Positions 1,877 through 54,100 of a DNA stretch of 64,000 bases are shown one piece after another. Both the position numbers and the translations under genes were made by a program. This DNA comes from Lophium mytilinum. Its lineage: Eukaryota. The notes under the pieces are model-generated. The model saw nothing but the letters and a program-made list of their open reading frames with translations, made no database searches and was not told the origin of the DNA. The stretch lies in the NCBI GenBank assembly GCA_010093605.1, contig MU004183.1, positions 1,612,001-1,676,000 of the forward strand, in the 5' to 3' direction. How positions within the stretch are numbered: position 1 is the stretch's first letter; every line of letters starts with the position of its first letter.

Positions 1877-4269
1877 GGATGTCACTCGTTCTGAGTGTAT
1901 GCCACGACCGCTTTGGGGTTGAAGACGGGGATGATGAGTTTTGAGTCTGTAGCGCGCATAGGTGCAACAGCTGGGTATGTTACGATCATCACAAGGATAG
2001 TATCGTTGGACTGTTGAATCATTAAGGTAAACTCTCGAGGACTACCAGCAAGTCAACCACTCAATCATATACTTCTCAAAATAAGGCCTTGACCGCACTC
2101 CTCACACATCAAATCTACCTCCTGTCCTCGCATCCACTTCATTAGTCCTACAGAAATAGTCATCTTGCCTAACCCTCGAACCCGCACGCCCAAAGCCGAG
2201 TCAACTGGGGGCGGAGTTTCGTAACTTTCATCCCAAACTCCACTCCTGGACATCTCTATAACGCTTTGATACTCTGAGCAACGAACTGAAGTCCCTTATT
2301 TCCTATTCAAGCATTTCCGCGCCTGCTGACATGCTACACTCCTCCGTAATTCTTACGCGCGAAACCTGCTGACGCCTTGCAAACCCTCATGCCGATCGCG
2401 GAGGGTGACGCCATGTCGCTCTGTCATACTCTTCTCAGACGAAATCGTATAGTAAAGCGCATCTCAGATTATGGTGAAGAAGTGAACTCGTGGGTAAGGG
2501 GCTGACTACAAATATAGCTGACCTCAGCAGCAAGTCAGCAGCCCAGGAAGCCAACACGTAAGCCAGTCGGCTAAGCACGATGAGTGGAAATATCAACGCT
2601 CCGATGGCGTCTAACCTCGCTCTTCACTCTTGCCCGACGCGTTCCCTAGCTTAAAGAGCCGGACATTGATCTCCCCCGAAACCCGAGCTTTCAGATATGC
2701 GGACAGTGATTAGCCATAGTCCCCAAAATCCTTAATCTCGCTCTCTATATGACACCGACACAACACAGAGCTCCGGGCTCGGGTCTTCCCTGAAAACGAG
2801 CTTTGAAAGCACGGCAGACTATGATGTCGGCAACTTTTTCACTGTAGTTACAAGATCTAAGCTCGTTCCCCCGAAGCCGATATCGAGCTGAATTCGGGCC
2901 TCGGTCTCTCCGACGACAAACGATGCGTGACATGCGTAGACAGTGAATAGCTATACCGCCAATACCCACCTAACCTACCGAAATCTCAGCCAGTCTAACG
3001 CTGGGACTCCGGATCTCGGTCTCTCTTTCTCCAACAACACACGATATGCGCAAATAGTGAACAGCCACACGACCGAGTCCCATCTAACCAACCCATATCG
3101 TAGCTAATCTCGCACTAACCAAATGTGCCACTGATGTCTAACAGACTCGGGCTCTCGGTATACCGCCCATGACCTCTGCGAGCTCTACTTGCCTCGAACC
3201 CCGTCAAATTGAGAGAAGTACGACTGTCCACAGCTCTCATTTCGCGGCCTCACGCAATCCCGTGTATCTGAACTTCGCTCCTCACATGGCTCCGAGCCTC
3301 CCACCCCGCTCTTCACGCAGCTCCGCGTACACACCCTCGCTCTTCATACCTTCCTGAGCGTACCGTCCCGCTCTTCACGAACGCCCGAGAACTGCTTACC
3401 ACCGACCCTTTCGGTACATGCGTAACTCCCGAGACACAGAACACCATAAAAGGGATAGGATCTCGCGTACAACGCATATTGCAACGCGTCTCGTCGGGCC
3501 GGGCCAACGCCCTCCCCGACACTCGAGGGGCGATATACAGTAAGCTCAGAGAACCGCACGAGTCGATTTCAGCAGTTCGTTCGAAGCAGCTGGGGCTGAG
3601 CCGGACGACGAAAGACGTAGGATAACTATCTGAATCGAGTGTTGCCGGCGCGGGAAGGCACACGATAGTGAAAGGCAGCAGTGGAGTGGTTGGTAGCATC
3701 AGCGGTTGGTGCAAGGCGGCCGCGGCGGAAGCCGGCGGGTTGAAATGGACTGAGATGTGTAGTACGTAGCTATGAGCTTGGACTTGTGGGATATCTATCA
3801 TGTTTCAGACCCGTGTGTCGCGTCTTCACCGTTCGCTTTCGTTCCATGTTCACTTCGCGAAATCGGGGACGGATAAGAGCGAGAGCGTCACAGCTTACCA
3901 AAGACATCACAAGCTCTGGCAAACGAACAGCACATAGGAATACTCTTTTATTACTAGGATTGATTTCCCCACCTCGACGCCAAATCTGGCGCCTTCTACC
4001 ACCATATACATTAACATCCACCACACTCCAATGATCCAAAACCGCCGTCCAGAAGTTCGCACTCCTAAAATTCTAGCAAATCCCCAAACCGGAGCTTTAC
4101 TGCCCCCAAACAAAACGCCGCTGCGATGCACGCTCGCCTCCGATCGGCCGTTTTCATGAAAGACAAAAGGCCGCCGGGCCCATGACCGCCGATGCTCGAC
4201 TCGGATCGACTAGAGATATGCACAACGCACCTCTTTTTGTATCCCGAGCCCCTTTTGTAGTAGGTCTAT

Positions 4270-5333
4270 TTACACAGCCTTCTTCGCCTTCGCAATCTTT
4301 TTCTCACGCCTGCGTTTCGACGCCTCAGGTCCGGCCTCGGTGTCAAGACAAAAGTCCCACCAGCGGAAGCTGGACGCGTAGTTGCCGATGAAGCGCTCGT
4401 GGTGGACATCGTGGTGCTCGGCGCCCGCCCAGAACGGGAGGAAGTGGTGCAGGCTCCACGGGAATTCGTAGCCGGAGTGGGCGTCGATGGCCTGGAACAG
4501 GCGGAACACGATCCACAGGTACATTGTCAGGATGTGCAGGTCCTTGGTGATGGCGCACCAGAGGAAGGGCACGCCGACGGTGCCGAAGCCGAGGACCATG
4601 ACTTCGATGGGCGAGGCGTATTCGGCGGCTAGTCCGAAGGGAGCTGAGTATTGGTGGTGGATTTTGTGGATGCCGCGGTAGAGGGGGCCCCAATGCATGG
4701 CGCGGTGGGTCCAGTAGTGCCAGGCGTCTTCGAGGACGAAGAAGACGGAGATCTGAAAGGCCATTGTAAAGAGAGAGGGGAAGGGGACGCTGGTAGAGAG
4801 GCCGACATATTGGCACATGGGGTGGAAGAGCCTGGGAATGTTAGGAAAGAGGGCGACATAGATGAGGAAACGGACTCACCAGATCTGGGGAAGCTCAACA
4901 GTGAAGTGGCTGAAGAGGACGAGTGCCGCGCATTGCCATTGCTCATAGGCAGTTGGTTTTTTGTCCTGTTATGGCTGTCAGCGGGTGAAGCAAGATAGCT
5001 GGAAGAGGTAAACGTACCTGCTGGATCTTGTATCTGTTGAACCAGGGTATCATATCTATTATGACCCAGGGCAGCGAGCGGCCGAAGTAGACCAGCTCGT
5101 GCATGGCGAAGGACATAATGCCGGTGGCAAGAATGTCGTTCTGCATGTAGGCGTACCAGGCCATCCATAGGCGCTCGAAGTAATTGAGCTGGACATTGTA
5201 CTTGGATATCTCCTCGAAGCCGCCCCAGTAGCTGGCCGGCGGGGTGGCGAAGGGGTCGTAGACGGTGCTGTTCCTGCAATCGGGGGTGGTTAGCGGTGAA
5301 GAGGATGCGATAGGAGGCCGGGGGCGCGTACAT
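4270..5333 (-). CDS. ERG25: C-4 methylsterol oxidase (sterol desaturase/fatty acid hydroxylase family), 4 exons
   Basis: His boxes HYWTHR, HKIHH and HHDVHH, plus '[16 protein letters not shown]' and '[11 protein letters not shown]'. Introns at about 5274-5331, 4966-5017 and 4832-4879 have GT..CTRAC-like..AG signals. The spliced product starts MNSTVYDPF. Confidence 0.95.
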
Positions 5334-5536
5334 GGCGACAAACTCGGGCTGCGGCCAGTCGACAAAGCCAATCTAATGGAGGGTCGCGCTGAGGAAGAGG
5401 AGCCGGGAGAGTTGCTGCGCAAGATGCGTTTTGTGGTGGGTGATGAAGGAGGATATAGGGAATAATTGTTGAGAACCACACCACTTTCAGGAGCCAGGAA
5501 CAATCGATTCCGAGACGCTAACATGTCTTTAGCGCT

Positions 5537-5546
5537 ATCACGTGAT
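5537..5546. promoter_or_regulatory. Palindromic ATCACGTGAT E-box/SRE-like site upstream of ERG25 (candidate SREBP/SrbA site)
   Basis: Perfect 10-bp palindrome about 200 bp upstream of the ERG25 start. SREBP-family bHLH factors bind ATCACGTGA-type sites, and erg25 is a known SREBP target in fungi. Confidence 0.5.
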
Positions 5547-6091
5547 CCCTACCATCTCGCCGCGGTCTCTTCCGAGATCGACGACGACGAGAGATGCCAG
5601 CACCGCCCGTACTGTGCCAGCGCTGATTGGCTACATTTTCTGCTCCTGTCCCATGCGTGGATCGACTATTTGCCCTCCGGATCCCGTCCTGCCGTGGACC
5701 CCTTGAGCTGCACACGACGACGGCCGTGCTGCGCCATTTGCCCACCAGCAGTCAGGTCATGGTGGTTCAGGAAACTCGGTGTGCCAGATATTATGACCCT
5801 TGAGACTCCATGTCGCCCTGAAAAGCCTCAACGATTTTGAGACTTGGGCTGTTGCACATTCACATCTAAGTACGTATCTTGATGATGTTTGGTCAGAAAG
5901 TGGTACGAATTTACCTCGCAGCAAGTCAGACTTAGTGTCTTCACAATCGACTAGGCCATATATGAGGTGGCATCCTGGTATCAAAGACTTCCGTAGCCTA
6001 AGTCTATCTATGAGATTGTCTTGGTCCTTCTAACCTCACCAATGCCATAGCAACATACCCCATCACTGATACTTCTCGGTATTGGAAACAC

Positions 6092-7201
6092 CTAATCCTG
6101 GCCTCCCGCCTGGCCCTCCATCTGCACAGGATCCGAATAGTATTCAGCATCCATTCCGCGAAGACCCTTGAACTCATGTGCCAAAGCCTCCAGTGCTTTG
6201 GGTCCAACATGCATGTCCTCATGCAAGCAAGCTTCGATTTCCCGGGTTGAGTTCATGAAGTCAATCCACGATTTATCTTGCTTCTCCTCCTCAGTCAAGC
6301 CCCATCGAACGTGCTCCACGCTCGTGGGAATAGACGAGATGAGTCTTCGCATCAAGTCTCGCATAACAGGTGGTGCCCGTCCAGTGCCCTGGAAGAACGC
6401 CAAAAGAACCGGCAGGATGTTGTCACCGTGCATGAACGCAATTCTCAGTTCGCGTAGATTCGGCATGACCTGAAGCCCGGAGAAGGCGAGCGCTTGGAGG
6501 ATAGGATATACTCGCTGTTCTCGATTCTCCCACGAGCCCTCTCGGATGGGTCCGTCGAGATTATCGAGGACGAAGTCGGCTAGAAGGATGTTCAGATGCA
6601 GCCGACGAATTGAGGACAGGTCCCATCCAGATGACGCAGCTTGGCCACCCTTCGCCCACTCGGATCGGGAATACTGCTCGTACTTCGCGTCCATGCGTGC
6701 GCTCCTACTGGCCTCGTCTTCATTGGGAGGAGCGGGAAGGTCGAATCGCCAATGAATTGAGGACATGTGGACTTGGAAGATGTGCGAGTTGTACAAGACT
6801 TGTTTCGCTTCTTCGTAAACCTGAGACAGTGAGCTATACGCTATGAGAAGAAAAGGGCTATAGGGATATACCTGTTTGGATGTCTGGAGTATAGCAACCC
6901 GCTTAGTTGTCCTAGGACGGTTCAGCCAACCCGACGAACAGCAGGGTCTATCAAGAGCTAATGTGTTGGTTACGTCGCTTGGGTCCCCCGGTGGGTAAGC
7001 CTCTATCATGGGCGTTGAGGACATATAGTAATGTGACTTTGGTCTCGGTTCTGGATCGTGTTCGCAGCCAGAATACCATTGCACCTCCAGTGGCACCAGA
7101 AGATGGCCATAAACCATATCCCGGAGCTCTCTAGGCAGATTTAGGAATTGGAAGGGTCCCTTAGGCTTCCATTGTGCTATGTCGGGCAGAAGTGGCTGCA
7201 T
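6092..7201 (-). CDS. Hypothetical protein with N-terminal F-box-like 'FLNLPRELRDMVYGHLL' motif
   Basis: 369-aa ORF containing a probable in-frame 51-nt intron at 6821-6871 (GTATAT...CAG). The motif is typical of expanded fungal F-box-like families. Confidence 0.7.
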   Translation of the reverse strand: MQPLLPDIAQWKPKGPFQFLNLPRELRDMVYGHLLVPLEVQWYSGCEHDPEPRPKSHYYMSSTPMIEAYPPGDPSDVTNTLALDRPCCSSGWLNRPRTTKRVAILQTSKQVYPYSPFLLIAYSSLSQVYEEAKQVLYNSHIFQVHMSSIHWRFDLPAPPNEDEASRSARMDAKYEQYSRSEWAKGGQAASSGWDLSSIRRLHLNILLADFVLDNLDGPIREGSWENREQRVYPILQALAFSGLQVMPNLRELRIAFMHGDNILPVLLAFFQGTGRAPPVMRDLMRRLISSIPTSVEHVRWGLTEEEKQDKSWIDFMNSTREIEACLHEDMHVGPKALEALAHEFKGLRGMDAEYYSDPVQMEGQAGGQD

Positions 7202-8019
7202 GATGACTGTGTGTGGTGTAGCGGATGATGAGTGTGGTTGTGTGTGGTGTGAGAGGTGTGGTGGGTGAGAGCGGTGAGGTAAATATCCTGCAAGTTTCCG
7301 TACTTATAGCTCTGTAGGAAAGACTGCGTCCACGTCTACGTCGTGACCAGGTTAGTGAATGGGTTACATGATTCTTCTGAGCTAGTGAATTCATTCAGTT
7401 GCAATTTAGCAGCTGCTAAGGAGGACGTCGAGGTTAGTGTCTCGTGTAAGCTTTGCATCATACCGACGCTGCGTTCGTACTAATATGGCTTACAAGGCGC
7501 TTGCCCCGTTCTCTCACTACGGTTTGTCCTATGGTTTATCTCGAAGACTGTTCCATCTCGTGCGGGCAGCATTTGTAGCTCAGCCCTCGGGAATCTCAAC
7601 CTTTTCGACGTTGTAAGAACTCACAAGTCGTACTTGGTGTGTGACTAACAGTTTCCGCGATGTATTCTACATTAGTGAAGATGGAACATAAAAAGACTTC
7701 CATGTTAGTGGTGACAATGATGAAGGGAATTGAAGGAGAGGAGTCCGGCGAGAGAAGTAGAAATAAAACGGCGAAGCCTTTCTGAAGATCTAAGTACCAT
7801 TGGAGGAAACAGTTTCGTAACTTTCCTAACATTTTTAAGATGTATCACTCCCAACACCTCGAGGTACCCCTCTATTAGTTTGAAATTTGTTTGATTTCAT
7901 TACCAATCTATGATCTTTCCAGTCTAACCGCCTGTCTAAAGGGTATCAAACTGACTATAGTCCACTAGATAGCTTGATCTCATGCAGCCTCATGTGCTCC
8001 ATCAAGGCCACTCATCCCA

Positions 8020-37800: not shown

Positions 37801-40800
37801 AGAAAAGAACTAAAGAAGTGAATCCGTCGCGTTTCCCGAATCTTTCTCCCCTCAGGGTAGAAACTGCCCCGTCTCAAGTCCTGTCGAAGATCAGCTCTAG
37901 AAGTATGAGCGACCTTGAGAGAGGTTGTCGTGCTAGAGGCATCACTATGCAAGCCGCTGGACAAGCTGCCTGGGCTTTGGTTTTGGCCGCATACACAGGC
38001 GACCCCAAAGTTACATTTGGTACTGTTCTCTCAGGTCGTACATTCGAAGACTCCGAGACCGTTGCTTTCCCAACTATCACAACCGTGCCAGTGACCTATC
38101 GCACCGACCAAGACAACGATGCACTTCTGAAGGACATAATGGAGCTCAGTTCTTCGGTCCAGAAGCACCAGTTCACCCCTCTAAGCGAGATACAGCGCAT
38201 TGCCGGGTTTCCTGACCAGCCACTATTCGATACCATCTTCGCCTTTCAGAAGGTTTCTACTCAGGACACTACATCTCGGCCCTGGAGAATCAGTCTGGAA
38301 AAGGCCTCTGATGATGTAAGTACAATTCTAGAATCTTCAGTTGCAGTTCTAACGAAATAGTACTCGTTATCTATCGAGGTCGAGCCTGCCGCCACGACAC
38401 TCGAACTGCGCATCACGTTCTCTCCTCACGTGGTCCCGGTAGAGCAAGCCTCTCTGATTCTGAGGCAGCTAGACGCGTTCCTCGTCAATCTAATTATGCC
38501 TCCAAGTATGGTGTCCCTGCAAACCGCCCCGCATGATGCAGTATTGTTTTCTATTACACCTGCAAGGGAGCCTTGTATTCCATCGAAGATCAAACTGCTT
38601 CATGAATTCGTTGAGGTCAATGCGAGGAAGCAGCCTCAGAAGATAGCCTTGGAATTCGTTCAGGCCTTCCAATCCGGAGAAGCTGTGGGCCAGTGTTGGA
38701 CTTATGCGGAACTCGACACGGAGGGAGACAAGATTGCCAGCTTACTCCAGAGTTATGGCGTAAAGCCCGGCGGCATGATCGCTACATGTTTCGATAAATG
38801 TCCCGAAGCGTCCTTTGCAATGCTTGGTGTCCTCAAAGCAGGATGCGCATTCGTGGCACTCGATCCGAGCGCGCCTACAGCACGAAAAGAGTTCATACTC
38901 AAGGACTCTGGAGCAGACTTATTGCTTACCATGAGTTCCCAATCAGCGGATCTTGAAAGTCAAGTCACTGTCCCCGTTGTGAACCTCGACGATCAGAACA
39001 CCAGACGTACGTTGAAATCAAGGCTCAAACTGGAACGTCCGATCACTGGTCAAGATACCAGCTACTGCCTATACACGTCGGGTACAACTGGTACACCAAA
39101 AGGCTGCGAGATAACGCACGAAAACGCTGTTCAAGCTATGCTCGCATTCCAGCGCCTTTTCGCAGGTCACTGGGACTCAGCGTCCCGCTGGCTCCAATTT
39201 GCATCTTTCCACTTCGATGTCTCAGTATTGGAGCAGTACTGGAGCTGGTCTGTTGGTATCCGCGTCGTCTCTGCACCACGTGATCTCATCTTCGAAGACA
39301 TTGGTGCTGCCATCAAAGTTCTCAATATCACACACATCGACCTCACTCCGAGCCTTGCTAGCATTCTCCATCCTGACGATGTTCCAAGCCTCTGCAAAGG
39401 GGTCTTCATCACCGGCGGAGAACAGCTAAAACAAGAAATACTCGACGTTTGGGGCCCTAAAGGTGTCATATACAACGGATATGGACCGACAGAAGCCACT
39501 ATCGGTGTTACCATGTATCCTAGGGTCCCCGAAAACGGAAAAACTTCCAATATTGGCCCTCAATTCGACAATGTTGGGTCGTATGTCCTCAAACCCAATA
39601 CTGAAATTCCCGTTCTTCGTGGAGCCATTGGGGAGTTGTGTGTGTCTGGAAAATTGGTGGGCAAAGGATATCTAAATCGAGATGATCTCACCAAAGAGCG
39701 CTTCCCGTGGCTCAAAACATTCGAAGAACGCGTTTATCGGACTGGAGATCTAGTCCGTATTCTGCACGACAACTCGTTCTCTTTCTGCGGCCGAGCTGAT
39801 GATCAAGTGAAGCTACGCGGGCAGAGACTGGAAATTGGAGAGATCAATTCGGTCATCAAGCAGGCTTCAGAAACAATAGTAGATGTAGCAACCTTGGTTT
39901 TGAAACGTCCGAACCAGCAGAAAGAACAGCTAGTTACCTTCGTGGCCACGAAAACTTTGTCCAAGTCGCGAAAAGAGCCGGCAATCCTTATTGGCAGCTG
40001 TGCGGAGTTGGTGCCGGCCAAAGAGGCTTGCGTGGAGAAGCTACCTGGATATATGGTCCCCACTCACTTCGTTCCAATCACCTCGATCCCATTATCAGCG
40101 ACCAATAAAGCGGACGGGAAGAAGCTTCGTGAGCTTTATAATGCCCTTGCTACGGAAGACCTTCAGCATCTCTCGAGCTTATCACGGGATCAAGACGACA
40201 AGTGGTCAACCACTGAGCGTCGCATTAGAGATGTTGTGAAGGACTTCACCAACAGTGATCCAGACGCGATACGTAAATCATCAAGCATCTTTGAGCTTGG
40301 CCTTGACTCGATCTCAGTAATCGGCTTCGCTAAGAAGCTAAAGGAAGTTGGGTTCACAAACGCACAAGCATCTTTAGTGATGAAAAGTAAGTATGTCCAA
40401 GTCCATGGCCGTAACATCCGCTGACCAGAATACTAGATGCATCCATCAGTCGCCTTGCAAAAGCCGTGACAAGTAGGGATGATGCTGGTCTGAGTGAACG
40501 CGCTGCAACCATCGAAGCCCGTCAGAAAACTGCAGCGATCCAACACCGACAACGTGGAACCATCCTCGATGCACTTCAGATCAACTCAAGCGATATCGAA
40601 TGCATTTCTCCATGTACGCCACTACAAGAAGGCATGATCGCGAGGTCGCTCGAAAGTGAGCAGCCATTATACTTTGTGTGTTTCCAGCTTCACTTGTCCA
40701 GCGCGGTTGACGAAACAAAACTGCGCTCCGCTTTTGAAAAAGTCTTTGCATCGACACAAATCTTACGCACCTGCTTCGTCAATACCGAGGATGGATTCTT

Positions 40801-43800
40801 GCAGGTGGCTCTCCGAAAACCAGCCTTTCCCTGGAAACAGATCGCAATCCCCAATTCCAGTGAAGTTGACCATCATCTTACTTGTGAGAAGGAGATGTGG
40901 TGGAAAGAGAACAAAGTGAGTCTCCAAAGGCCATTCGAATTAGTGTTGGTAAAGTTACCTGGTCGGGCAGTCCTCGCTCTGCACATCTTCCACGCGCTCT
41001 ACGATGGGGGCAGCTTGCCCATGCTTCTAGCCGCCCTCCTGAAAGAGTATTCAAATCTCGGAAGCGCTTCTTACGGGCCACCGTTTCAATCTGTTCTTCC
41101 CTTTGGGCCCCTTAGGAAATCTGAAGGTGCACAAAGCTTCTGGTCCAAGATTCTCTCAGCAGCTCAACACAGGCCATTCCCGTCCCTAGCTGCATCGTCA
41201 CAGATAGAAGATGTTGTAGTTACTAGAAACCTAGAGGGGCTTGACCGCTTCGAGGCCATCAGGCGGAAGCTTCAAGTTACTCACCAAGCAATTGCGCAAG
41301 CTTGTTGGGCAACGGTGATGCAAGCTCATGTCAAAGGTGCGGTCACGCTGGGCATAGTTGTTTCTGGAAGATCAATCGACTATGAGGGGGCAGAAAACAC
41401 GATCGGTCCATTATTCAACACTATCCCGTTCTACATTCAAGTCGAAAGGCCAGACACATGGGCGACTTTAGTCACGAGGTGTCATGACTTCAACACCGCG
41501 GCTGTACCATTTCAGCATACTCCATTGAGAGACGTTATGAAATGGAACAAAAGAACGTCGAAAGAGCCGCTCTTTGATACGCTATTCGTGTATCAGCGAG
41601 CTGATGGGGATAGTAGTACTTGGGCTCATAACCACCTTTGGGATGTGGTTGATGACGGTTCTACTGCTGACTATCCGCTTGCATTTGAAGTGGAGCAGAG
41701 TCAAGACGGGGCTTTGAAGCTTACAATAGTTGCCCAAGGGCATGTCCTCGACTATTCGAGTGCCTCCAGGTTGCTCGATGAGTTCGAAGCTACTTTGAAC
41801 TCGCTACTCACGAATGCGGAGTCCTTGATAGCAGATGCCCGCGGCGACATCTTCGATTCTTCCGATGCTGCTCTTCACCCATTCCAAGCTGATAGGCTTC
41901 CGGGGATACCTTCAGATCCAGATACAGCTTATGAGTGGGGACTACAAGCGTCCGCAATTCGAGACGAGATAGCAACACTGGCTGGCGTCGACACGGTCGA
42001 AATCAACGAGAGAACTTCGATTTTCGAGCTGGGTCTTGATAGTATTGATGCCATCAAGCTATCTTCTAGGCTGAGAAGACGTCAAATCGAGATTCCAGTC
42101 AGCTCGATCATGCGAAATCTGACTGTGTCGAGAATTGCACAACATATCCTAAGCGAACCGAGCAATAAGGCACCGTTGCATTCGGATGGAATGCAGCTTC
42201 AACTGCGAACATTGGAAGAAATCTTCCGGAAGAGCAGCCCCGGCAAACAAGCGGTCGATCATGTGCTTCCAGTAACTCCATTGCAAGAAGGTATGGTAGC
42301 GGAAATGCTGTCTTCCGACTTTACTAGGTATTTTAATCACGACACTCTCAAACTGGGCAGCAATGTCGACATCACGAAACTCAGAGACGCTTGGGACACC
42401 GTCTTTCAACAATCTCCAATTCTTCGAACCTCGTTGATGGAGATAGATGACCCAACTTTGGACTTCTCTTTTGCTCAGATCGCCTCACGATCTCCCGCGT
42501 TGCCTTGGGATGAGACTGAACTTGGGAACGAAAACCAAATAACGCAGCTCATCAATGACATCAGGAAAACAGCTGCGCGCTCGAAGTCTCCTACGAATCT
42601 TTTTCGGATCCATTTCGTGAAGTGCCCAGGGGCCTCTTACCTCGTGTTATCTCTCGCGCACGCATTATACGATGGATGGTCGCTCACCCTCTTGCATGAA
42701 GACGTTCGAAGGGCGTACTATGGCCAATACAAATCTCGACCCTCATATCGCAAGGTTCTAGAACAAACTTTGAACGCGTCGGGTCCAGAGGCGAATGGTT
42801 TTTGGCAAAGCTACCTCTCCGGCGCTGAATCGGTAACGTTCCCTCGAAAGGGGCCCTCGGAAAGTCAACCAGACCAGCAGCACCGACTAGAACGCACGAG
42901 CAAGATTCCACTTTCTCAGTTGATCTCCTTCAGCAAGAAATATGGGATCACTCTCCAGACAATCGGACAAGCCGTCTGGTCGTTAGTCCTTGCCTCATAC
43001 CTACACACACTCGAAGTCGTTTTCGGCTCCATCTTATCCGGAAGGGATAGTGAGCTAACGACGGATGTGCTGTTCCCAACGATGAATACCGTCGCCGTTC
43101 GTGTGTTTCTCCACGGAACTCGACTTGAGCTGCTTCGGGATGTGCAACACAACTTTGCGAGTATTCGACAATACCAACATTTTCCGTTACGTATCGCTCA
43201 AAGATTCGCTGCTTCGCCAGGGAAAGCTCTTTTGGACACTCTCTTTGTTTACCAAAAGAGCCCTGAAGCCACCCTAGACACACAGAAGCCGCTGTATGAG
43301 TCCATTGGTGGGTTGTCTGATGTCGAATATCCGGTGTGTACCGAGATGGAGATCGTGGGGAATGATCTGATTTGGCGCTGCGCTACGCACAACTCAGCTC
43401 TTGACGATGAAGGTGCTGCGGAGTTGCTAGACCGGCTCGATCTGGTATTGAGGAATGTTATGGAACATCCTAACCAGCCAGTTATCGACATTACGAGTAA
43501 CGAGACTAGCATCTGCGGGTTAGCACCGTACAAAACCCAAGACACATCGGCCCTCATGCCTGATCATGCCGAAGACGAAGAACCATCAAACACCACGTCT
43601 TCCGCATGGTCTGCTACCGAGTTGACTATTCGCGAAGTGCTCTCAGCCGTGTCGAATATACCCGAAGACGAGGTGTCGAAATCCATAACCATGTTCCATC
43701 TCGGTCTCGATTCAATCAGTGCCATTAAAGTGTCTTCTCTTCTTCGGAAACGATCGGTCAATCTGAGTGTAGGCGACATGCTTCGGGCAGCCACAGTGGA

Positions 43801-45304
43801 GAAAATGGCAAAGTTAGCCGATCAAAGGAAGCCAGATGCACCATTTTCCACCTCCGACACGGATGCTTTAATCTCTGCGGCCCTAGAACATCAAAACGTA
43901 CCTGCAGTACTCTCTCGAGCTGGCCTCTCCACCGATAGCTTCGAAAATATCCTTCCTGCTTCGGCTGGCCAGGTTTACATGCTTTGTAACTGGACGAACA
44001 CCCGCGGCACGCTGTTTTATCCGGGCTTTCAATATCGCGCCTTGGAATCTCTTACCGTAGCAATTCTGCATCGAGCATGGGACGAATTGGTCGCTCGAAA
44101 TCCACTGCTCCGGACCTCCTTCTTCGCCACACGAGATGTAGAGACTCCATTTCTACAGGGCGTCCTCCGAAACGCAACTTCTTCATTCCACGACATCTCC
44201 GACATTGAAGAAGCCAAAAGATCTCGCTACATTGAAGAGAACAGCACTTGCCAACCTTACGTTTTCCTCTTCGCTCAGCGGTCTGCGAATCACTGGCTTC
44301 TAACTCTCAAAATCCACCATGCTCTGTACGACGGCGTGAGCCTACCGATATTGATACACCAGCTTCAAGACCTCTGCAATGGCTCTGTAGCGCAGGCCCA
44401 CCAGAATTATGCATTCAAACGAGCACTGGCTATCAACTCTACCGAGGACGCTCGCAAAAAACGTCGATCCTTTTGGACTTCGTATCTGGAAGGCGCCTCA
44501 CTTAGACATCTCGCGCAACCTAGTAACGCGGCCTCGTCTCGGGTAGAAGTCTTCAAGCCCCGCCTGATCGAGAATGTCGGAAGCTTAGAGAGCCTGTCCA
44601 GGCAAGGTGGACTCAGCATCCAATCGCTTTTCTTGGCGGCATATGGCAAGATGTATTCCGCGCTGCTCCCTGGTACTCTGGACCCCAAGGACGAAGACCT
44701 TGTAATCGGGCTGTATCTCGCGAATCGCTCTCATGCAATTGAAGGCCTCCCCGATGGCGCCGCGCCGACAGTGAATTTGGTCCCTCTGCGGATCAAGACG
44801 CCGCAATTAACAAGCCTTTCAGACTCTGCCTTGCAGATACAGCATGATATACGGGAGATTGGCACCTTAGAGAACTCGGCGGTGGGGCTGTGGGAGATCT
44901 CGAAGTGGACTGGAGTTAGGATTGATACCTTTGTGAATTTTCTAAAGCTGCCTGCCGCGGACACCGAAGCTGCCAAACAACCTCTGGAAATTCAAGAAGC
45001 CAATGGAGGGGAGGAAGCGTGGAGTAGAACGGTGGACCACGCGGAGAAGGTGGAAGGCTTCGTTCTTGCGAAGGAGCTTCTAGACAACGTGGTCAGGGAA
45101 TCGTATTTGGTGAGTCTTGGATCTGCGCGAGAATACATCCATATGCTAACATTAGATTTCTAGCACACAATTGACGTGGAAGCCACTATCAGAAATGGCG
45201 CTTTGGATGTGGGCGTGTTTTGTCCGGTAGAGCTGTTGGGTATGGAGGGCGCAGGGAAAGTGATTGAAGATCTAAAGAGAGAGCTCATGAGTTTGCTTTC
45301 GTAG
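28847..45304 (+). CDS. NPS2: Ferrichrome-family (probably ferricrocin) siderophore NRPS, A-T-C x4 + T-C x2, ~5,416 aa, 5 exons
   Basis: Exons 28847-32936, 32995-38315, 38361-40386, 40437-45109 and 45164-45304 sum to 16,251 nt in frame. Four A domains (Y/FTSG(S/T)TG, YGP(T/S)E, Y(R/K)(T/S)GD, VK(L/I)RG), six GLDS thiolation motifs and six H(A/Y)(L/M)YD(G/A) condensation motifs. Divergent from sidA. Confidence 0.95.
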
Positions 45305-45572: not shown

Positions 45573-46724
45573 CTAAGCCTTCAATCGCGTCCCTTGTAAA
45601 TCCTCGTGCGCGTCCTTGAGTAGAAAGCTAAAGCATGTCAGACTTTTGCCATGTACTCTGAAGAAGTATTTACTTACTTGTACCACCATATCGTAGGGCC
45701 AACAGTCCCTAGATGCCACAGACTATGCGCATCGACCATGCCCCACCAAGGTGGAAAGTCCAACAACTCCAAACTCATCGCCATAATTATCCACGCGACG
45801 ATCAGACCCGGCCACATCGCCCAAGTCCTATTCAACTTCTTGTACTGATTGTAACTGAACCAACTCCACATCAAGTTCTGCACGATTCCCACGGCCACAT
45901 TCGCCGCCATATTGTACGTGTAGTCCCAGCTCCAGAGCGAGAGATATAAGACATGCGCGGAGTAAAGCGAGAGACACAGCAGCGTCCACGCCCTCAACAC
46001 GCTCTGTTTAACGGGGTCACGCTTATCCAGGCGGAAGATGCGGATAGGCGCGTAGTACAGCCCATACATAACGCTAGCGCCCGCACCGAAGTAGTCCATC
46101 TTCTCCGTGAACGCAAAATCGCGTGTGTGGAAAAGCATGCTGAAGGTCCAGCTCGCCAGCCCGAAGTATCCGAACAGCAGGTAGTATTTACGCAGGGCGT
46201 AGGAGGCGGGCACTTCGCTCCGGAGCCGCGAAATGCCGTAATCGTGGGCGAGGTAGTTGAAGAGGGAGAAGATGACGCTGAAGGGTTCCTGCATGCCTAG
46301 GAAGCGGTAGAAGGGCCATTTACCGTGGAATTGGTAGATCGGCTGCATGTAGGGTGGGTCGCGCGCGAGCCGTGTGTCGGTCACGACGTGCTGGCATGTG
46401 TAGTCGCATTCGGACGGGCAGTCCCAGAGGAGGAGCCGGTGGTGGAGAGCTAGGAGGTTGTCGTATCAGCGCCAAATCGATCACTATGATACAGCAGCTG
46501 GAAACTCACATATAGGCGTCGGGTTATCTCCGCAGTTGGCTTCTTTGCAGACCTGTAGAACCAAGGTGAGCGCGTGCTATGCTTGGTGGATGTTGATGTC
46601 TCACCTTCACACATTCTTTGAATTCCGGCAGCCTGTCACCGAGAGAGGCTTGAGAGAGGCCAACAAATGAACACGCGGCGGTGAGAGCAATTAAATGCCA
46701 TCTTTGGTGCGATCGTAGCCTCAT
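45573..46724 (-). CDS. PER1: Per1-like GPI-anchor lipid remodelling protein, 4 exons
   Basis: Signal peptide followed by 'ASLGDRLPEFKECV', 'WDCPSECDYTCQH', 'QFHGKWPFYRFLGMQEPFS', 'FHTRD' and 'DFPPWWGMVDAHSLWH'. Confidence 0.95.
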
Positions 46725-47310
46725 CTTCGTGGCTAGAGTATCTCCATGAAGCTGGGGGATGGTGTGTTGTTTCAGGGCCCTGAGTCTCTCCCGCTTCCGC
46801 TCCGCAATTTCTTGGCACTCCCCAAAATGGGCACCTCAGATATAAGTTTCCGGTCGCAAGGGGTTTGTTGGTACTCAACTTTGCTGATTTTGTTTGACGG
46901 CCTGTAGTTGTTTTTTCGATCGTTCATGTTGAGATTTCGTCGGTTGCGAATAGTTCTGGCCTTGTCTTGTACCACCCAGCGGTCACTGATAGAAAGTTTT
47001 CATTCGCGAGCCTCAAAGAGCTCGGCTTCTGTGATCTTAGTGCTCCTTGAGATGGTCCTCAATAAGAAATTGCTGTGACTTGACCCTGGATTCCCCGTAA
47101 TGCCTGATGTACTACGGTGATGGCTCGTGCCCCGCTGAATTGCACTAATAATCAAAAAGAATATTACCAAACCGCCCCAAACGCAAAGCTGATGTTCTGG
47201 TATGATCTCTTAACGTAGAAATGCCAAATATACGCAAAAAAATTGGTGTTCCTCTCGCAAACCGAGCCGCGGTGGTTCACTGACGCTGGAGACCCTCCCA
47301 ACCCACCACC

Positions 47311-47316
47311 AAAAAA
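47311..47316 (-). terminator. RNA polymerase III oligo-T terminator of tRNA-Ala
   Basis: TTTTTT on the minus strand, 12 nt after the discriminator base. Confidence 0.75.
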
Positions 47317-47328
47317 TCAATCCTACTC

Positions 47329-47460
47329 TGGAGATATGGGGGATCGAACCCCAGACCTCCCGCAAGCTATATGCAAAGCGGGCGCTCTACCACTGAGCCT
47401 TGGCGCTTACGTCAGCTATTATATATGAAGATAGGCCACGGAGCCACTTACTATATCCCC
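47329..47460 (-). tRNA. tRNA-Ala(UGC) interrupted by a 53-nt spliceosomal-type intron (nt 9/10) and a 7-nt canonical intron (37/38)
   Basis: Spliced sequence GGGGATA-TA-GCTC-AGTGGTA-GAGC-G-CCCGC-TTTGCAT-GCGGG-AGGTC-TGGGG-TTCGATC-CCCCA-TATCTCC-A. All four stems pair, with G3:U70 and A73. B box GGTTCGATCC, T6 terminator downstream. Confidence 0.88.
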
Positions 47461-48284
47461 GAATTTCGATGGTTGCAAAAATTATTCAATATATATACCG
47501 TAAAAAAAGAACAGATCAAAACTCTGGGGTGGCGGTGAAAGCTCTCCTACACGTCATTGGCTATAGATCATTGAAACCGCCGCAGAAATTGCTTACAGGT
47601 ATAGTATAGGTTCCATGGGACCCACTCTCCAATGCGGGGTCTACAACGCCTTTTACAGCTTCCAACCCCACAAGGTAGGATACATAATCCGAAAAATCTA
47701 GTGCATTCTCTTTGAATGTACGCACATAACTCTACTCCATTAGAGCAGAATTGCTAAATGCTGTGGCATATGAAAATTCATGTTGGTTGCGGTTCGGACT
47801 ACTAAGCGAATGTCCCCCAACACCTCCCCGCTCCATCCCACGCCTCCGAACCGCCAGTTTCCCTCACCATAAGCACCCGATCATAAGGCAATAGGCCTTT
47901 CAAAAAGGCCGCGCTATTATGATTTCTGCTCGAATAGGACAAATCAATCACTGATTCGCTCACATTGTCCTTATCAACTCGCCCGCCCCCTTTTGCAATT
48001 AACTAGGATGTGCCGCCCAGCTGCAACATTTTTATATTCATCGTCTTCACCGGATACGAAGCTGACGGCCTCTACTCATCTAACAACCATGGTGATATTG
48101 GCCTTAGTATGACTTGCCCACGCAGCTACCATAAGCTTCAATTTGAGGGTTCCAAATTGCTTTTTTGCACATATTTTGCTGCCCGCGAAAGCCTCCTAGG
48201 CTTAAAGTGTTCTCAAAGCGGCGATGTCGTTGTGTACACTCTATAGATGAACCATGAGGACTTGACCTAGTTTTGAGCTTTGGA

Positions 48285-48700: not shown

Positions 48701-49507
48701 TCAAGGTGCAAGCAGACGATTTCTTACAGAATAGCGATACGAAAGGCCCGGCCTAGTCTGATATATTGCTGAGGCGTCCCTAGCAGCGTCTTTTTGCGGC
48801 ATCTTCATTGCAGCTGTGCAAACTCTACGGAGGCGTCAATCTGTGGGCTCAGCGCAGTGGTATTCAGCTTATATACTACTAGAGAACATGCTAACATTCT
48901 GCAATAGGTTCGTGATTCATAGCCATTCTCGCATTGTGATCTAGGCTGCTCCTTGAGCTGTTTCATTCACTCCTATTTGGCAAAGTTTGAAGTCCTCCAG
49001 GAGGATATGTGCCTGGAAAGTCATATCGAGATTCCAGCCAACACCGTAGCAAGCCAAACTTCGACGTTCTAGGTATAGGCACCGAAATTGAGATTCGTAA
49101 TTGTCAATGCCTTTGTACTCTCAGCCCGCATTTCCTTGCTCCATACCTGCTATAAGCGGCCAAAGCTTTTATCAACACAGGTCTATACAGGATCATGACA
49201 CAGAATCGTACACACCTCGAGATCAGAGTCATTTTAATCATGGTTTCATTAGTCTGAGTACAACTGCATTCATAATCAAGGTTATCCATTTCTCTCATCC
49301 TAGTCTTTAAAAATAGTCTTCCATAACAGAGCCGACGCATGATGTAAGATTACTACATGCAAGATCTAGGCCGAATGTTCAAAATGCTCATAAATACGAT
49401 GCGCCTTAATGCCCAAACTGAACTGGGGCCACCCTAAAGGAGTTCTAAAGTCTTTCAAGACGATACTCCACTTTGCAAATGCTCGCAAAAGAAAGAAAAT
49501 CTGAAAT

Positions 49508-51114
49508 CTACGCAATCTCGTACTTGCGCCTGAACATGCCGTCAACGTCAGTGAGGTAGTATGTACCAGGGAACAGGGTATCAGTGGCGCCCTTGGGCTT
49601 GTAGTCTTTTTGAAGGTGGGCCTTGCCGCGGAGGTTGCACATCTGTGGGTGGTGTTAGTCATGTGATGCTGGGAACAATAGTAAGAGTTTCAAAGAAAGA
49701 GAGCTTACCTCATCGTACACCTCCGGAGCGACAACACGTCGCGAGTCCAGGCGGCTCTGGATGTCAAGCGCCTTCGAGATTTCCTCTGTAGAGCCATTGA
49801 CCTTGAATGAAAACAAGGAGCTGGCAAGACCGCTGCCGTAGCTGAACATGCCAATGCGCTTGCCCTGGATGTCCTCGCTGCTGACATTGCTGATCAGGCT
49901 GCACAAGCTGCCGTACACGCTACCGCAGTACATGTTGCCGCACTGAGTGGGGACCTGGATGCTGGGCTGGACGCGGGCGGCGTACTTCTTCTTTGCGAGA
50001 CCCATAAAGACCTTCTCGACGGCCTTGTCAGTCACAGAGGCTGCGTAATCGAGACCAGACAGCTCCTTGGGAACCTCGGCGAAGATGGGGTCGGAGGGGT
50101 TGGTGAGATAGTCGTTGTACAACAGACGCGCGTAAGACTTATTCACCAGCTTGCAGTTTGGCGCATGGAAGCACATGTAGTCGAAACGATCGAGAGGAGT
50201 ACCGGCTGCGGAGTCACCGTTCGCATGACCGTTGGCTTGGCCCTTGACAACTGCTTCGCGGGCGTTGTACGCCTTGTAGCATGCGTCAACAGCCTCGATG
50301 TAGCAGCGGATGGAGAATTGCCCATCAACAATGGGGTACTCGCTCGTGAAGTCGGGCTTGTAGAAGTCGTAGACGTGGGTAATGTAGCTGCCACGGATGC
50401 CAGCATCCACTACAATGGGGGCGTCTGGGCCAACGAGCATAGCCACACAGCCAGCACCGCCAGTCGGGCGAGCATTGCCCTTCTTATACAGCGCAATGTC
50501 GCCAGTAACGACAATTGCGTTCCGGCCGTCCCAAGCAGACGACTCGAGCCAGTTCACAGTGTTGAAGAGGGCGTTGGTGCCGCCGTAGCAGGCATTCACG
50601 GTGTCCACACCCTCGACGTTGAAGTTTCCAGATTCCTCGAAAAGCTGCATCAACACCGACTTGACGGATTTTGACTTGTCGAGCAGGGTCTCGGTGCCGA
50701 CCTCGAGGCGGCCAATGGTCTTCAGGTCGATATTGTACTTCTTTATGAGAGAAGAGAGCGCGGTGAGGGCTAGCGAGTAGATGTCTGTGCAGAAGAGGCC
50801 CGTTAGCACGCATTCTCCCCACTGCGGCCCTGGCTCGCAGCGAACACTGGGTAGGAGCTCTCACCTTCCCGGTCGTCGCAGAAGCTCATCTTCGTCTGGC
50901 CCAGGCCAATGGTGTACTTTCCGGTGCTAACGCCATCGAACTTCTCGAGCTCGGCTTGGTCGACGCACTGCAACCGCGGTTAGAGTCGTCGTTGCCAGAG
51001 GGGCGCAGCACTCGTGCTCGTGCGTCTAGGAGGGGCAGGGGACGGCACACGTACCTGGCTGGGAAAGTAGAGCTCGAGGGCCTTGATGCCGATGTTGGAG
51101 GGTCGCGCGGCCAT
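49508..51114 (-). CDS. ERG13: Hydroxymethylglutaryl-CoA synthase, 4 exons
   Basis: [20 protein letters not shown], '[19 protein letters not shown]', catalytic 'NACYGGT', '[10 protein letters not shown]' and '[10 protein letters not shown]'. Confidence 0.96.
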
Positions 51115-54100
51115 GGTGGAAGTGCTTGGAGGCAGAGAGTTCGTGAGAGAGACGGGTGTGGAGGAGGTGAGGGCGCTGGTTCACCGCTGGTTTTGTAGGG
51201 AGAACAATAGCGTGATAGACAATGGGGTTAAGTTGCGGTCTGGGCGGCGGCGGCGATCGGACAGAAAGTTTGGCGAGACGTGAACTAGATTGGGTGCAAC
51301 GGTGAGCAGTGAGAGCTAATTGATGAGCGGAAGGGAGGTCGCTGGGCGTGTGTTATGAAGGACCTGAGTTCTCGGAGTCCGCAGGCTGCTCTTATAGTGT
51401 CAGACTCCGTGGTGGGCAGCTACTGTATCGCGTCCGGACCCTCAACAAATCGACTCGCCGTGGTGGGATTGACGCTCGAGCCGTCGGCCATCGTCGAAAA
51501 ATCCAACGCCTGCAGGGGCCCTTTGAAGCCCGTTCCCCGCAACGGTCAAGCGCCAGGAACGATTGGTGAATGCAGCCGACAATCGCCCACGGCACTGCCC
51601 TGCAGCATGCGCAACTGATGTGATTTGGACTGCATGTCACACTCGAGCAGGTGGAGTCGCACTCGTGGCACAGTGGCCTTTTCTCACTCCAAATCAACCC
51701 GGATATCGGGCCAAGGCTGCTCGTCGCAAGAAAAGCACCACCAAACGGTGCTCTCGGACCATGTCGTCACCTGCATGCTCCTCGCCAACCACAGCCTGAC
51801 GGACCTGCAGTCGCGCTGCTCCACTGGACGAACCCTCGAGCCGCGGGAATGCTTCAGACGTTCCGACCTGGTACCCATTCACCCCGCTGATTAACATGTC
51901 TAGAGTCCGACGGACTTTTGATACACTAGTTTGCTTCACGCTTTGGCCGTATCTCTGTGCTTTTATGATGTGAAAAGAAGCAGTCACGTTTAGTTTGTCT
52001 CTTGAGTGGGATATTTGATGTGGGATGTGAGCCTATTCCCTCAAGTCTGGTCAAGCTGAAACAGATCCCCCGGTGGCGTCCAGAGCTGAGGTTCTGCGGA
52101 TGATGTTTTTGTTGACTGTTCGTCTGATATCAGGACTGCTCGTTATAAGATCTCGGGCCCTCGTAGTTTCACAACTAGTCAATCAATCCTTCATCATGCA
52201 CTTCATCACAATCACAGCCATTCTCACTGGTCTTTTACCACAACCTAGACTTGTATTCACCACTAGATACATCGTTTCAGAGCATTTTTAGGGAGATATC
52301 AGTTTGTATGACATTGTCCCTTCTGACGATTGTCTAGCTGGCACCACGCCTCGAACAATAGTTTGAAACCGAGCTTGATATCGACTGCATGAGTCTACGT
52401 ATATTCTAGAATACAAAGCGTCTGGGATTGAAATGTATGTTTATTGCCAAGCAGCGAAGTACCCGGACATGAGTTCGCACACTCTTTTTCGCCACGGATT
52501 TTGATCTCCCTTCCTGAACTCGAATAAACTGCCGCACACCTAAACCGCTCAATTTGCGCCGTTCAGGCTTTTGGTCCCAGATATCGCACCGAAATACCTC
52601 AGGTGTATGCAAACTTCTGTCCAGGTAGAGCGCAACGAAGGCCACAAGTCGTTTGCTTGATCGAGTGTAGGTTCTTCTGATTGCGACTACAAGTCCGTCC
52701 TACAACAAATCGCTCGCTCAGGAGGACGTAGTGAGTCGAGCACATGGCCTTCGACTACTACTCAGTTGACGACCACACCCGTGCTGTGTTCGACATCATC
52801 ATTCCAGGAACTCGTTTCCCGCGTAAGATTTCATCTAACTGCCACTCACCACATCTGCCGAGCTCATCAAAACGACTGATCTGGTATGTGGAGCGCCACC
52901 CGGCCCAGTATTGTTGAAGGACCGGCAATACATCCTACAATGTCTTAAGGAAGCGCTCGACTGTGCTGGGAAAGGAATTTGACATGTAAGGAGCCCTAAT
53001 AACTCCGTACGATCATGCTAAACGGACGCGACAAACTGACGACTTCAAATCGCGGAAGACACACCACTACTCTATTCTCTGCTGGCCCGCTTGACTCTGA
53101 CGCTGTCGAACGCGGCATTAAGAGTCTGTTCTACCTACAGCGTGGTTGGTGGAATTTCGAATCGCGAGCACACGGCATGAATGATCTCATGCCGCCATAA
53201 GCAAACAACGCAGGACTGAAGGTTAATGAGGCATAAGAGTGTCGATATACGGCATATCTGGCTATAGGTGTCCATGATGAAACGGGCTTGATCAGTCTTT
53301 CATCAGCATCTAGCCCAAAGAGGAGTCGAAGCAGACGACGGGGAAGCTTGTATTGTTCCGTGGCTAAAGCCCGGGTGGGACGCAGATCTGTCAAACATTC
53401 ATCACTTTCCAGAGGCTTTTGGACATGGAAGGCGGGGCGACCACCCGCAGCGGGAAGGTCGCCAATAGTGGTCTGGATAGGGCAGACCCGCAACGAGTGA
53501 AGGGTAGAGTGCGAGGCCCACGACGGTCGGAGGCTGGGACTGGATGGCTGAACCTGCGCAGTGTTTCATGGCGTTTCAGCGTGCAGACCACCCACCTGCC
53601 TCACGCCGAGTAGATAGTGGCAGGCGAGGCAGCAAGCAGTCTTACCACAAGGTTTTCTGTGGCGAGTCGGCCTGCAGAATCTCCTTAGCCTACCGTGTCT
53701 GCTTTGCGAATGGCGCGCTGCACTGGGCTAGCTATATTGGAGTCGGTCCTGTCTAACGGGGCCCTGCGCGATCACCAGGGCCAAATCAAGGTTATCCGCA
53801 CCTGGGCATCGGCAAATTGAACCGAGTCAGCGTGAAAGAGCATGAGAATTGGTGGAGAGGAGGGGCCGAGAGACAGCGGAGGGTGCATTTGACAGTGTGA
53901 CAGTTTTAGAAATTGAGAGCAGAGGAGCAGAGGCGCGAGAGCACTGACTGTGAGTGACTGATGATGAGCACGGTGGTGATGAAGTGAAACGGAGCTTGCC
54001 GTAGAATATCGTTTGGAGAGCGCCCAGCCAAGCCCTCTCTCAACTCTGAAGCGCCGTCCATAGCACCACGACCCAAACACCCTCACCACCACCCTCGCTG

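Follow-up and report, generated by a model that had tools for sequence, protein, structure and literature searches.

Gene content and layout of the locus

The window, that is, the whole 64-kb stretch of Lophium mytilinum DNA analysed here, harbours NRPS modules, Per1 (PGAP3) and an HMG-CoA synthase gene, an ascomycete-like gene content; the nearest Atlas cluster to its Per1 is mostly Ascomycota. On the minus strand, at 47460..47329, the sequence reads as a tRNA-Ala(UGC) gene (G1 = 47460, A9 = 47452, G10 = 47398 and N73 = 47329) that is divided into three exons by a 53-nt insert and a 7-nt intron. Its parts are as follows.

47452..47460, minus strand: exon 1, nucleotides 1–9 (GGGGATATA), from sequence reading; pairs with the 3′ acceptor strand after in-silico removal of the insert
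47399..47451, minus strand: 53-nt insert between nucleotides 9 and 10, with a GTAAGT donor, a GCTGAC branch site and an AAG acceptor
47372..47398, minus strand: exon 2, nucleotides 10–37, from an Rfam match, in-silico joining and stem pairing
47365..47371, minus strand: 7-nt intron at the canonical 37/38 position, boundary shiftable by 1 base, from an Rfam match, in-silico joining and stem pairing
47329..47364, minus strand: exon 3, nucleotides 38–73, with U70 opposite G3 and with A73, from in-silico joining and stem pairing
47350..47341, minus strand: B box GGTTCGATCC within exon 3, from sequence reading

Once the insert is deleted in silico, ARAGORN recovers a tRNA-Ala(tgc) of 72 nt whose 37/38 position carries a 7-nt intron, and all 21 of the 21 stem pairs, G3:U70, A73 and the UGC anticodon are then present. 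The 7-nt intron satisfies the position rule of the tRNA endonuclease. With the insert in place, ARAGORN at default settings detects no tRNA in the 64-kb window, and the Rfam match is confined to 47407–47329, with a mispaired acceptor stem and a score of 37.4 bits. Another in-silico excision (GTGGCC...GTGGTAG) was considered and rejected for its poor donor and the bad D stem it leaves.

The 53-nt insert as a spliceosome-type intron

The donor of the insert, GTAAGT at 47451..47446, starts exactly at the exon 1 boundary and fits the 5′ splice site GTRNGT, and the branch site GCTGAC, with its A at 47412, lies 13 nt ahead of the insert end and fits CTRAY followed by a 3′ AG. The length of 53 nt falls inside the range of seven RNA-verified introns nearby (50–87 nt), whose donors read GTAAGT, GTGAGT, GTGAGA, GTAAGC or GTACGT and whose branch sites are mostly of the CTRAC type. 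The acceptor of the insert is AAG, whereas that of the verified local introns is YAG in all seven, and a second AAG is located 6 nt past the branch A of the insert. Judged from these signals, it appears very unlikely that GTAAGT at the exact boundary, CTGAC at the right distance and a terminal AG came together by chance. The insertion site is 9/10 and not 37/38, and no bulge-helix-bulge was found in the fold of the gene, because of which the insert is not an ectopic intron of the endonuclease type. By our own estimate, the tRNA-Ala gene in the window is likely to be functional and spliced.

Flanking signals and transcription

The surroundings of the gene hold sequences of the kind that RNA polymerase III (Pol III) uses and also an upstream transcript with an intron of its own.

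47311..47316, minus strand: T6 run of the Pol III terminator type, 12 nt past A73, from sequence reading
47236–47242, minus strand: second, downstream T7 run, from sequence reading
47490..47497, minus strand: TATATATA, a TATA element at −37..−30 from G1, from sequence reading
47502..47508, minus strand: T7 run upstream of the gene, traversed by an RNA contig, from sequence and RNA contigs
47547..47596, minus strand: 50-nt GT..AG intron of the upstream minus-strand transcript, spliced in RNA contigs (depth 13, one contig)

Terminator-like T runs and AT-rich upstream stretches recur among the relatives of this gene described below. In six of six interrupted genes (window included), N73 is followed within 25 nt on its 3′ side by a T run of at least 5, compared with 542 of 32400 random 25-nt windows that contain one (1.67%), and the region at −42..−21 is more AT-rich than that at −70..−43 in 20 of the 23 genes compared. 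A TATA tetramer is present at −41..−33 in 8 of these 23, both A-box-split genes among them. The position of TATATATA suggests that initiation could be positioned by this element, with no need of an A box in the intron. At tRNA genes of Schizosaccharomyces pombe, TBP is recruited by TATA elements upstream, some fungi can transcribe tRNA genes under the direction of such elements, and in Cyanidioschyzon merolae they occur together with A and B boxes that are split (PMC3978253, PMC4600332). The avoidance of T runs inside the inserts was considered as a signature of Pol III and rejected: the longest T run within the insert in the window is 2 and T runs reach at most 3 in nine of nine inserts, but this does not discriminate, because T runs of 4 or more are missing from all seven mRNA-type introns nearby as well.

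RNA data were available from one public run in the form of contigs (depth 5–13), from which neither RNA level nor RNA ends are readable; the run was judged to be RNA-derived because seven introns are missing from its contigs, in Per1, in the HMG-CoA synthase gene and in the upstream transcript. The last of these is a spliced transcript on the minus strand, with the joint 47545->47596 (CT..AC, cut +1) present in an RNA contig, and its downstream exon crosses the T7 run and the TATA element to reach about 47458, as placed by bin depths and an 88-letter contig side. Another RNA contig spans 47145–47398, which takes in the tRNA from G10 to its 3′ end as well as the T6 run and the T7 run that follows it, and one contig terminates precisely at 47398 (G10). 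No joint 47398/47452 is listed among the RNA contigs of this run; the same bin depths and contig side suggest a gap in cover at about 47399–47457, which says nothing either way on splicing of the insert. The transcript that enters the gene looks like a Pol II-type transcript. An earlier note on this DNA had proposed a promoter role for a motif in the insert and counted transcription of the locus by Pol II against it; a spliced Pol II-type transcript does enter the gene, but its presence is compatible with transcription by Pol III too.

The same gene in related fungi

Using the large exon of Per1 as bait, we collected 80 fungal loci with an amino-acid identity of 66–89%. In many of these 80 loci, a tRNA-Ala(UGC) gene is located upstream of Per1 at a distance of a few hundred bases, and ARAGORN identifies it as an ordinary tRNA gene in 26; two of the 26 were labelled tRNA-Thr, which we read as a mis-parse of a long 37/38 intron. 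tRNAs of any other kind were not found in the 496 kb of loci. Interrupted genes were found by a profile of mature sequences followed by reading. Counting the window as one row, the 81 rows comprise 9 interrupted genes (8 loci and the window), 26 ordinary and 2 decayed ones, 28 rows in which no tRNA was found within the flank and 16 in which the flank is too short to tell. The eight loci represent five distinct interrupted genes, three of them with two inserts each, so that there are eight GT..AG inserts of 47–60 nt besides the one in the window.

L003: insert at 58/59, 50 nt
L005 (= L006): inserts at 25/26 and 57/58, 52 and 52 nt
L039 (= L040): inserts at 15/16 and 24/25, 49 and 47 nt
L060 (= L061): inserts at 21/22 and 56/57, 49 and 54 nt
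L063: insert at 51/52, 60 nt

The eight inserts of the relatives begin with GTAAGT, GTAAGA, GTTAGT, GTAAAA or GTGAGT, and brute-force removal of each GT..AG candidate followed by ARAGORN recovered exactly the same insert solutions. After in-silico removal, 121 of the 126 stem cells pair across the six interrupted genes (window included), G3:U70 and A73 are retained in all six, and 15 of the 21 pairs display compensatory changes among them. These compensatory changes may be older than the interruptions. Both default ARAGORN and Rfam missed or mis-scored the interrupted genes here. Two wider searches were negative: a pattern for interrupted tRNA-Ala genes (exon 1, GTNNGT, 30–60 nt, AG, exon 2) had 0 matches in metagenome contigs, and a scan with acceptor stems for hidden interrupted genes returned noise only in those loci where no tRNA had been detected.

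On the Per1 tree, the genes with inserts do not group together but are scattered. L005/L006, for example, adjoin L019/L022 and L025, which carry ordinary genes at the same syntenic place. The closest relatives of the window (L001 and L002, with Per1 88–89% identical) hold decayed tRNA pieces only at the syntenic place, and these remains indicate that the locus can die. The gene is oriented away from Per1 in L005/L006, L039/L040 and L060/L061. An intron at 9/10 was found in none of the 80 Per1-linked loci.

The A-box-like motif in the insert

The insert cuts the internal A box, and the split falls between nucleotides 9 and 10, as the earlier note had described. The note went on to propose that an 11-mer just inside the donor, TGGCTCCGTGG, replaces the broken box. 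Its description of this motif holds: TGGCTCCGTGG matches the native A box formed by in-silico joining, TAGCTCAGTGG, at 9 of 11 positions and is located 7 nt downstream of the normal site, with its first T at gene position 15 compared with T8. The note also called the exon 1/intron junction, TAGTAAGTGG, A-box-like, which is the case only with one base dropped, and the AGT of the junction is shared with the GTAAGT donor and adds little. The sequences that bear on the proposal are listed below.

47436..47446, minus strand: A-box-like TGGCTCCGTGG, insert bases 6–16, 1 mismatch to the consensus that we assume for the A box (p=0.0052, 5000 shuffles)
47390..47400, minus strand: AGGCTCAGTGG, the leftover native A box together with the AG of the intron, 1 mismatch to the same consensus
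47426..47433, minus strand: TATCTTCA within the insert, a 7/8 match of weak significance to the tRNA 3′ end (TATCTCCA), complementary to exon 1
47418..47425, minus strand: TATATAAT within the insert, starting about 28 nt ahead of exon 2, from sequence reading

The motif was scored against TRGCNNAGTGG, which we take to be the A-box consensus. At no more than 1 mismatch, this consensus occurs at 38 sites on both strands of the 64-kb window, compared with 24.5 +/- 4.9 expected, a density of about 3 per 10,000 positions, and 0.52% of the 5000 shuffled insert interiors reach the same level. The real significance is weaker than 0.52%, since the motif was spotted post hoc. The motif is nonetheless real and modestly non-random, and pure chance is unlikely. 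What the earlier note overlooked is that G10–G19, i.e. 9 of the 11 A-box bases, remain contiguous in exon 2, where they form AGGCTCAGTGG with the preceding AG. Two A boxes close to the consensus are thus present in the gene at a distance of 46 nt from each other; the copy in exon 2 is 39 nt away from the B box, which is the normal spacing, and the intronic motif 85 nt. The insert holds further stretches that resemble its own tRNA, namely 8-mers with at most 1 mismatch to nucleotides 10–18, 65–72 and 7–14 (p=0.068), and exon 1 is paired with TATCTTCA in the minimum-free-energy fold. A promoter use of TATATAAT would be speculation.

As a substitute for conservation, we searched the inserts that split a box for a copy of that same box and compared the matches with shuffles. 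Four other inserts split an A or B box, two of them with weak copies and two with none.

Window, 9/10: splits the A box; 1 mismatch; p=0.0052
L039, 15/16: splits the A box; 5 mismatches; p=0.99
L003, 58/59: splits the B box; 3 mismatches to the 11-nt consensus (p=0.07), with GTTCAATCA 1 mismatch from the 9-nt core of the B box (p=0.12)
L005, 57/58: splits the B box; AGTTCGAGCAC; p=0.09
L060, 56/57: splits the B box; no box-like match; p=1.0

The B-box-like sequences of L003 (GTTCAATCA) and L005/L006 (GTTCGAGCA) both show G at position 53, in contrast to the T of the tRNA (p 0.07–0.12). Of the five box-splitting inserts, three contain something box-like and two contain nothing. These genes do not generally require a replacement box, and the putative A-box role of the intronic motif is not general among the relatives. 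The intronic motif is probably a leftover D-arm-like fragment or a product of chance, which may at most help and would not be a required replacement; these are origins that we lean towards, not established ones.

Weighing the explanations

The reading that we favour, which we consider quite possible though short of probable, is that of a spliced Pol III unit with TATA-guided initiation and a dispensable intronic motif, and here we infer the splicing, the polymerase and the role of the motif alike. The gene would be a nuclear tRNA-Ala(UGC) gene that lies upstream of Per1 and still functions, split by a spliceosome-type GT..AG intron and retained as a Pol III unit through its upstream TATA element, intact B box and T6 terminator. 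The start site would be set mainly by the TATA element at −37..−30 together with TFIIIC on the B box. The spliceosome would then remove the 53-nt intron from the precursor, as it does in S. pombe U6 RNA and ascomycete rRNA introns, and RNase P, RNase Z and the tRNA endonuclease would complete the maturation, removal of the 7-nt 37/38 intron included. The earlier note assigned the positioning to the intron instead: TGGCTCCGTGG would be a working A box that is bound by TFIIIC along with the B box, places TFIIIB and is kept by selection, so that Pol III initiation stays upstream of exon 1 and does not move into the intron. The close match of TGGCTCCGTGG to the consensus argues for this, as does its start at position 15, from which the usual distance between A box and start site would predict a start few bases before G1, downstream of the TATA element. 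The idea also predicts box copies in other box-splitting inserts, and the weak B-box-like copies in the B-splitting inserts of L003 and L005/L006 (two of the four others) agree with it. The exon-2 copy AGGCTCAGTGG, however, is equally close to the consensus and has the usual B-box spacing, the remaining two of the four inserts have no copy, an orthologous 9/10 intron is absent from the 80 related loci, and many members of this gene family have a TATA element upstream. The insert also matches tRNA nucleotides 65–72 and 7–14 besides the A box, which a tRNA-derived remnant fits better than a selected promoter box. Considering both sides, we regard a selected replacement A box as unlikely.

The intronic motif would be irrelevant if the tRNA came from a Pol II host transcript, i.e. 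from a spliced minus-strand non-coding transcript with a start at about 47,800–48,100, from which the spliceosome would remove the 47596..47547 and 9/10 introns co-transcriptionally and RNase P and RNase Z would free the tRNA. The spliceosome normally acts on Pol II transcripts, and the spliced contig (depth 13) extends to about 47458, past the upstream T7 run and the TATA element, with the second contig (47145–47398) spanning the 3′ end of the tRNA and both downstream T runs (T6 and T7); a split B box without a replacement, as in L060, would moreover cripple TFIIIC binding. A precedent exists in Arabidopsis, where a Pol II lncRNA yields a tRNA-like RNA (PMC6152437). The T runs of at least 5 retained 3′ of the tRNA in six of six interrupted genes, and the AT-rich or TATA sequences common at about −30, count against this route, because a gene transcribed by Pol II only would not need them. 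The orientation of the genes in L005/L006, L039/L040 and L060/L061 points the same way, since no shared host transcript is evident for genes that face away from Per1, and the contigs supporting the route come from a single run at depth 5–13. We therefore give a Pol II origin of the tRNA little weight as well. It is rather doubtful, too, that the insert recently inactivated the tRNA and that the gene is dead, with exons not yet decayed and with a motif and splice-like signals that are functionless. Such a fate would agree with the decay of L001 and L002 at the syntenic place, with the atypical AAG acceptor and with the RNA contigs, among which no spliced junction occurs; a tRNA-Ala(UGC) may also be dispensable if other alanine tRNAs read its codons. 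But splice signals of this quality are jointly very unlikely by chance, the 21 stem pairs, G3:U70 and A73 are intact, and five other lineages are interrupted alike with their cloverleaves intact. Three of these lineages have two inserts each, and function must have persisted between successive gains.

Comparison with known systems

Small-RNA and rRNA genes offer close counterparts of a gene split in this way. According to the title of a 1990 paper by Frendewey et al., cited in PMC5855946, the intron of the S. pombe U6 gene matches the B-box consensus, and this would be a precedent for a replacement box. Like the gene in the window, the U6 gene is a small-RNA gene with Pol III-type features that is split by a GT..AG intron with a promoter-box-like sequence inside; unlike it, U6 RNA is a component of the spliceosome and the box is of the B type, not the A type. 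The intron of the S. pombe U6 gene is spliceosomal and its removal by the spliceosome is documented (PMC5855946), whereas both splicing and promoter use are putative for the gene in the window. Since a tRNA is no part of the spliceosome, there is no obvious counterpart here to the origin by reverse splicing that has been proposed in the case of the U6 intron. Ectopic spliceosomal introns are also present in the nuclear rDNA of ascomycetes (Bhattacharya et al. 2000, cited in PMC8527467), and yeast excised one such rDNA intron from Pol I transcripts (PMC8527467). Those introns share with ours their short GT..AG form, their scattered positions, a host gene that is not transcribed by Pol II and their occurrence in Ascomycota, but their host is a Pol I rRNA gene and not a tRNA gene of about 72 nt with an internal promoter cut by the intron.

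Among nuclear tRNA genes, those of C. merolae are similar in architecture, as their introns lie outside 37/38 and break up the A and B boxes, and permuted tRNA genes also exist in this organism (PMC3978253). The two systems share an upstream TATA-like element, a downstream T stretch and split boxes (PMC3978253); the introns of C. merolae are, however, bulge-helix-bulge substrates of the tRNA endonuclease, unlike the GT..AG inserts with CTRAC branch sites seen here. The GUT15 gene of Arabidopsis resembles our locus in that a spliced Pol II transcript contains an RNA shaped like a tRNA, and here a spliced transcript enters the tRNA. It differs in that the tRNA-like molecule is derived from an intron there, whereas a true tRNA-Ala is itself split by an intron here.

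Implications

We consider the recurrence of spliceosome-type introns in nuclear tRNA genes to be more important than the A-box-like motif. On balance, we lean towards the view that ascomycete nuclear tRNA genes repeatedly gain true spliceosomal introns at non-canonical sites, often through the A or B box, and remain functional. As read from the sequences, this view would cover a single syntenic tRNA-Ala gene with nine insertion sites spread over six lineages, with a perfect cloverleaf kept by the gene in the window. If it is correct, a tRNA-Ala would need both the spliceosome and the tRNA endonuclease, on a Pol III or a Pol II host transcript, and some of the introns may carry substitute promoter boxes. 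Eukaryotic tRNA genes are usually said to have introns of the endonuclease type, located at 37/38. We came across no description of a tRNA gene with a spliceosomal intron in the literature searched, which is incomplete in coverage and excludes most subscription journals, and the accessible part of a 2023 review of tRNA processing mentions the spliceosome only as a contrast (PMC10275265). Should the inserts be spliced, the making of a tRNA would hinge on the spliceosome, genes of this kind would escape standard tRNA finders, and the internal Pol III promoter would either tolerate being cut or be replaced. These genes could then serve as a natural system for the action of the spliceosome on Pol III transcripts outside U6, and the replacement-box idea would become testable over several independent introns.

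Origin of the inserts

The inserts resemble one another at the splice signals alone and do not form a repeat family. A mobile intron family was rejected within 560 kb, as each insert matches its own locus or the identical sister contig only. Semi-global alignment of each insert to flanks of equal length yielded p >=0.09 in every case (0.26 for the window), and the 8-mer self-similarity described above for the window has p values of 0.13–1.0 in the other inserts. In local alignments of the inserts to their own tRNA, the window scored p=0.25, the other seven inserts p >=0.11 and L003 p=0.005. Local duplication is therefore supported for the L003 insert only, and the tests for it are weak in the window; the L003 insert copies the tRNA 3′ end together with its trailer.

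Conservation of the Per1-linked tRNA-Ala(UGC)

The tRNA-Ala(UGC) gene adjacent to Per1 is conserved in fungal lineages whose Per1 is merely 66-81% identical to that of the window (loci L003-L079 of the fungal Per1 set), and its orientation relative to Per1 varies by clade. Within the 496 kb of Per1 loci, no tRNA kinds other than tRNA-Ala(UGC) were found.

Window 45674-47460: tRNA-Ala(UGC) and Per1 neighbourhood
L001:3340-3560: decayed tRNA-Ala remains
L002:3340-3560: decayed tRNA-Ala remains
L047:3338-3467: tRNA gene with long 37/38 intron
L049:3336-3462: tRNA gene with long 37/38 intron

Upstream of Per1 in L001 and L002, the closest relatives of the window, the tRNA-Ala is present as decayed remains, which in L002 include two pieces in tandem and which still have a T5 run on their 3' side. 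The heptamer TCCGTGG is common to L001 and the window's A-box-like intronic motif, with uncertain homology.

Variation among the tRNA-Ala genes of relatives

G53:C61 is a nearly universal pair in tRNAs. T53:A61 replaces it in many tRNA-Ala genes of Per1 loci (L019, L022, L025, L038, L050-L056, L074 and L078, and also L003, L005 and L039), with the T loop TTTCGATCA, and their B box therefore departs from consensus. Several of these genes also have an acceptor-stem mismatch, either T6-C67 or T6-T67.

At the canonical 37/38 site, the introns of L047 and L049, whose tRNA-Ala genes are mislabelled tRNA-Thr by ARAGORN, are 55-58 nt long, contain CTGAC-like motifs and have no GT start. The 15/16 inserts of L039 and L040 differ by one A (A7 versus A6) in a run directly 3' of the GTAAAA donor, the contigs being otherwise identical.

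Other features of the window

An unannotated spliced transcript, seen in contigs of the RNA-derived public run X1 (depth ~13), runs towards the tRNA-Ala. It holds no ORF of at least 100 aa, and its cover fades at ~48,000-48,100.

47547-47596 and ~47600-48100, minus strand: unannotated spliced transcript
38361-40424, plus strand: NRPS-domain open frame
40415-45163, plus strand: NRPS-domain open frame

The two large NRPS frames (38361-45163, plus strand) hold AMP-binding, PP-binding and three Condensation stretches. X1 depth is very high, ~3000-7700, over the HMG-CoA synthase gene (49387-51338, minus strand).
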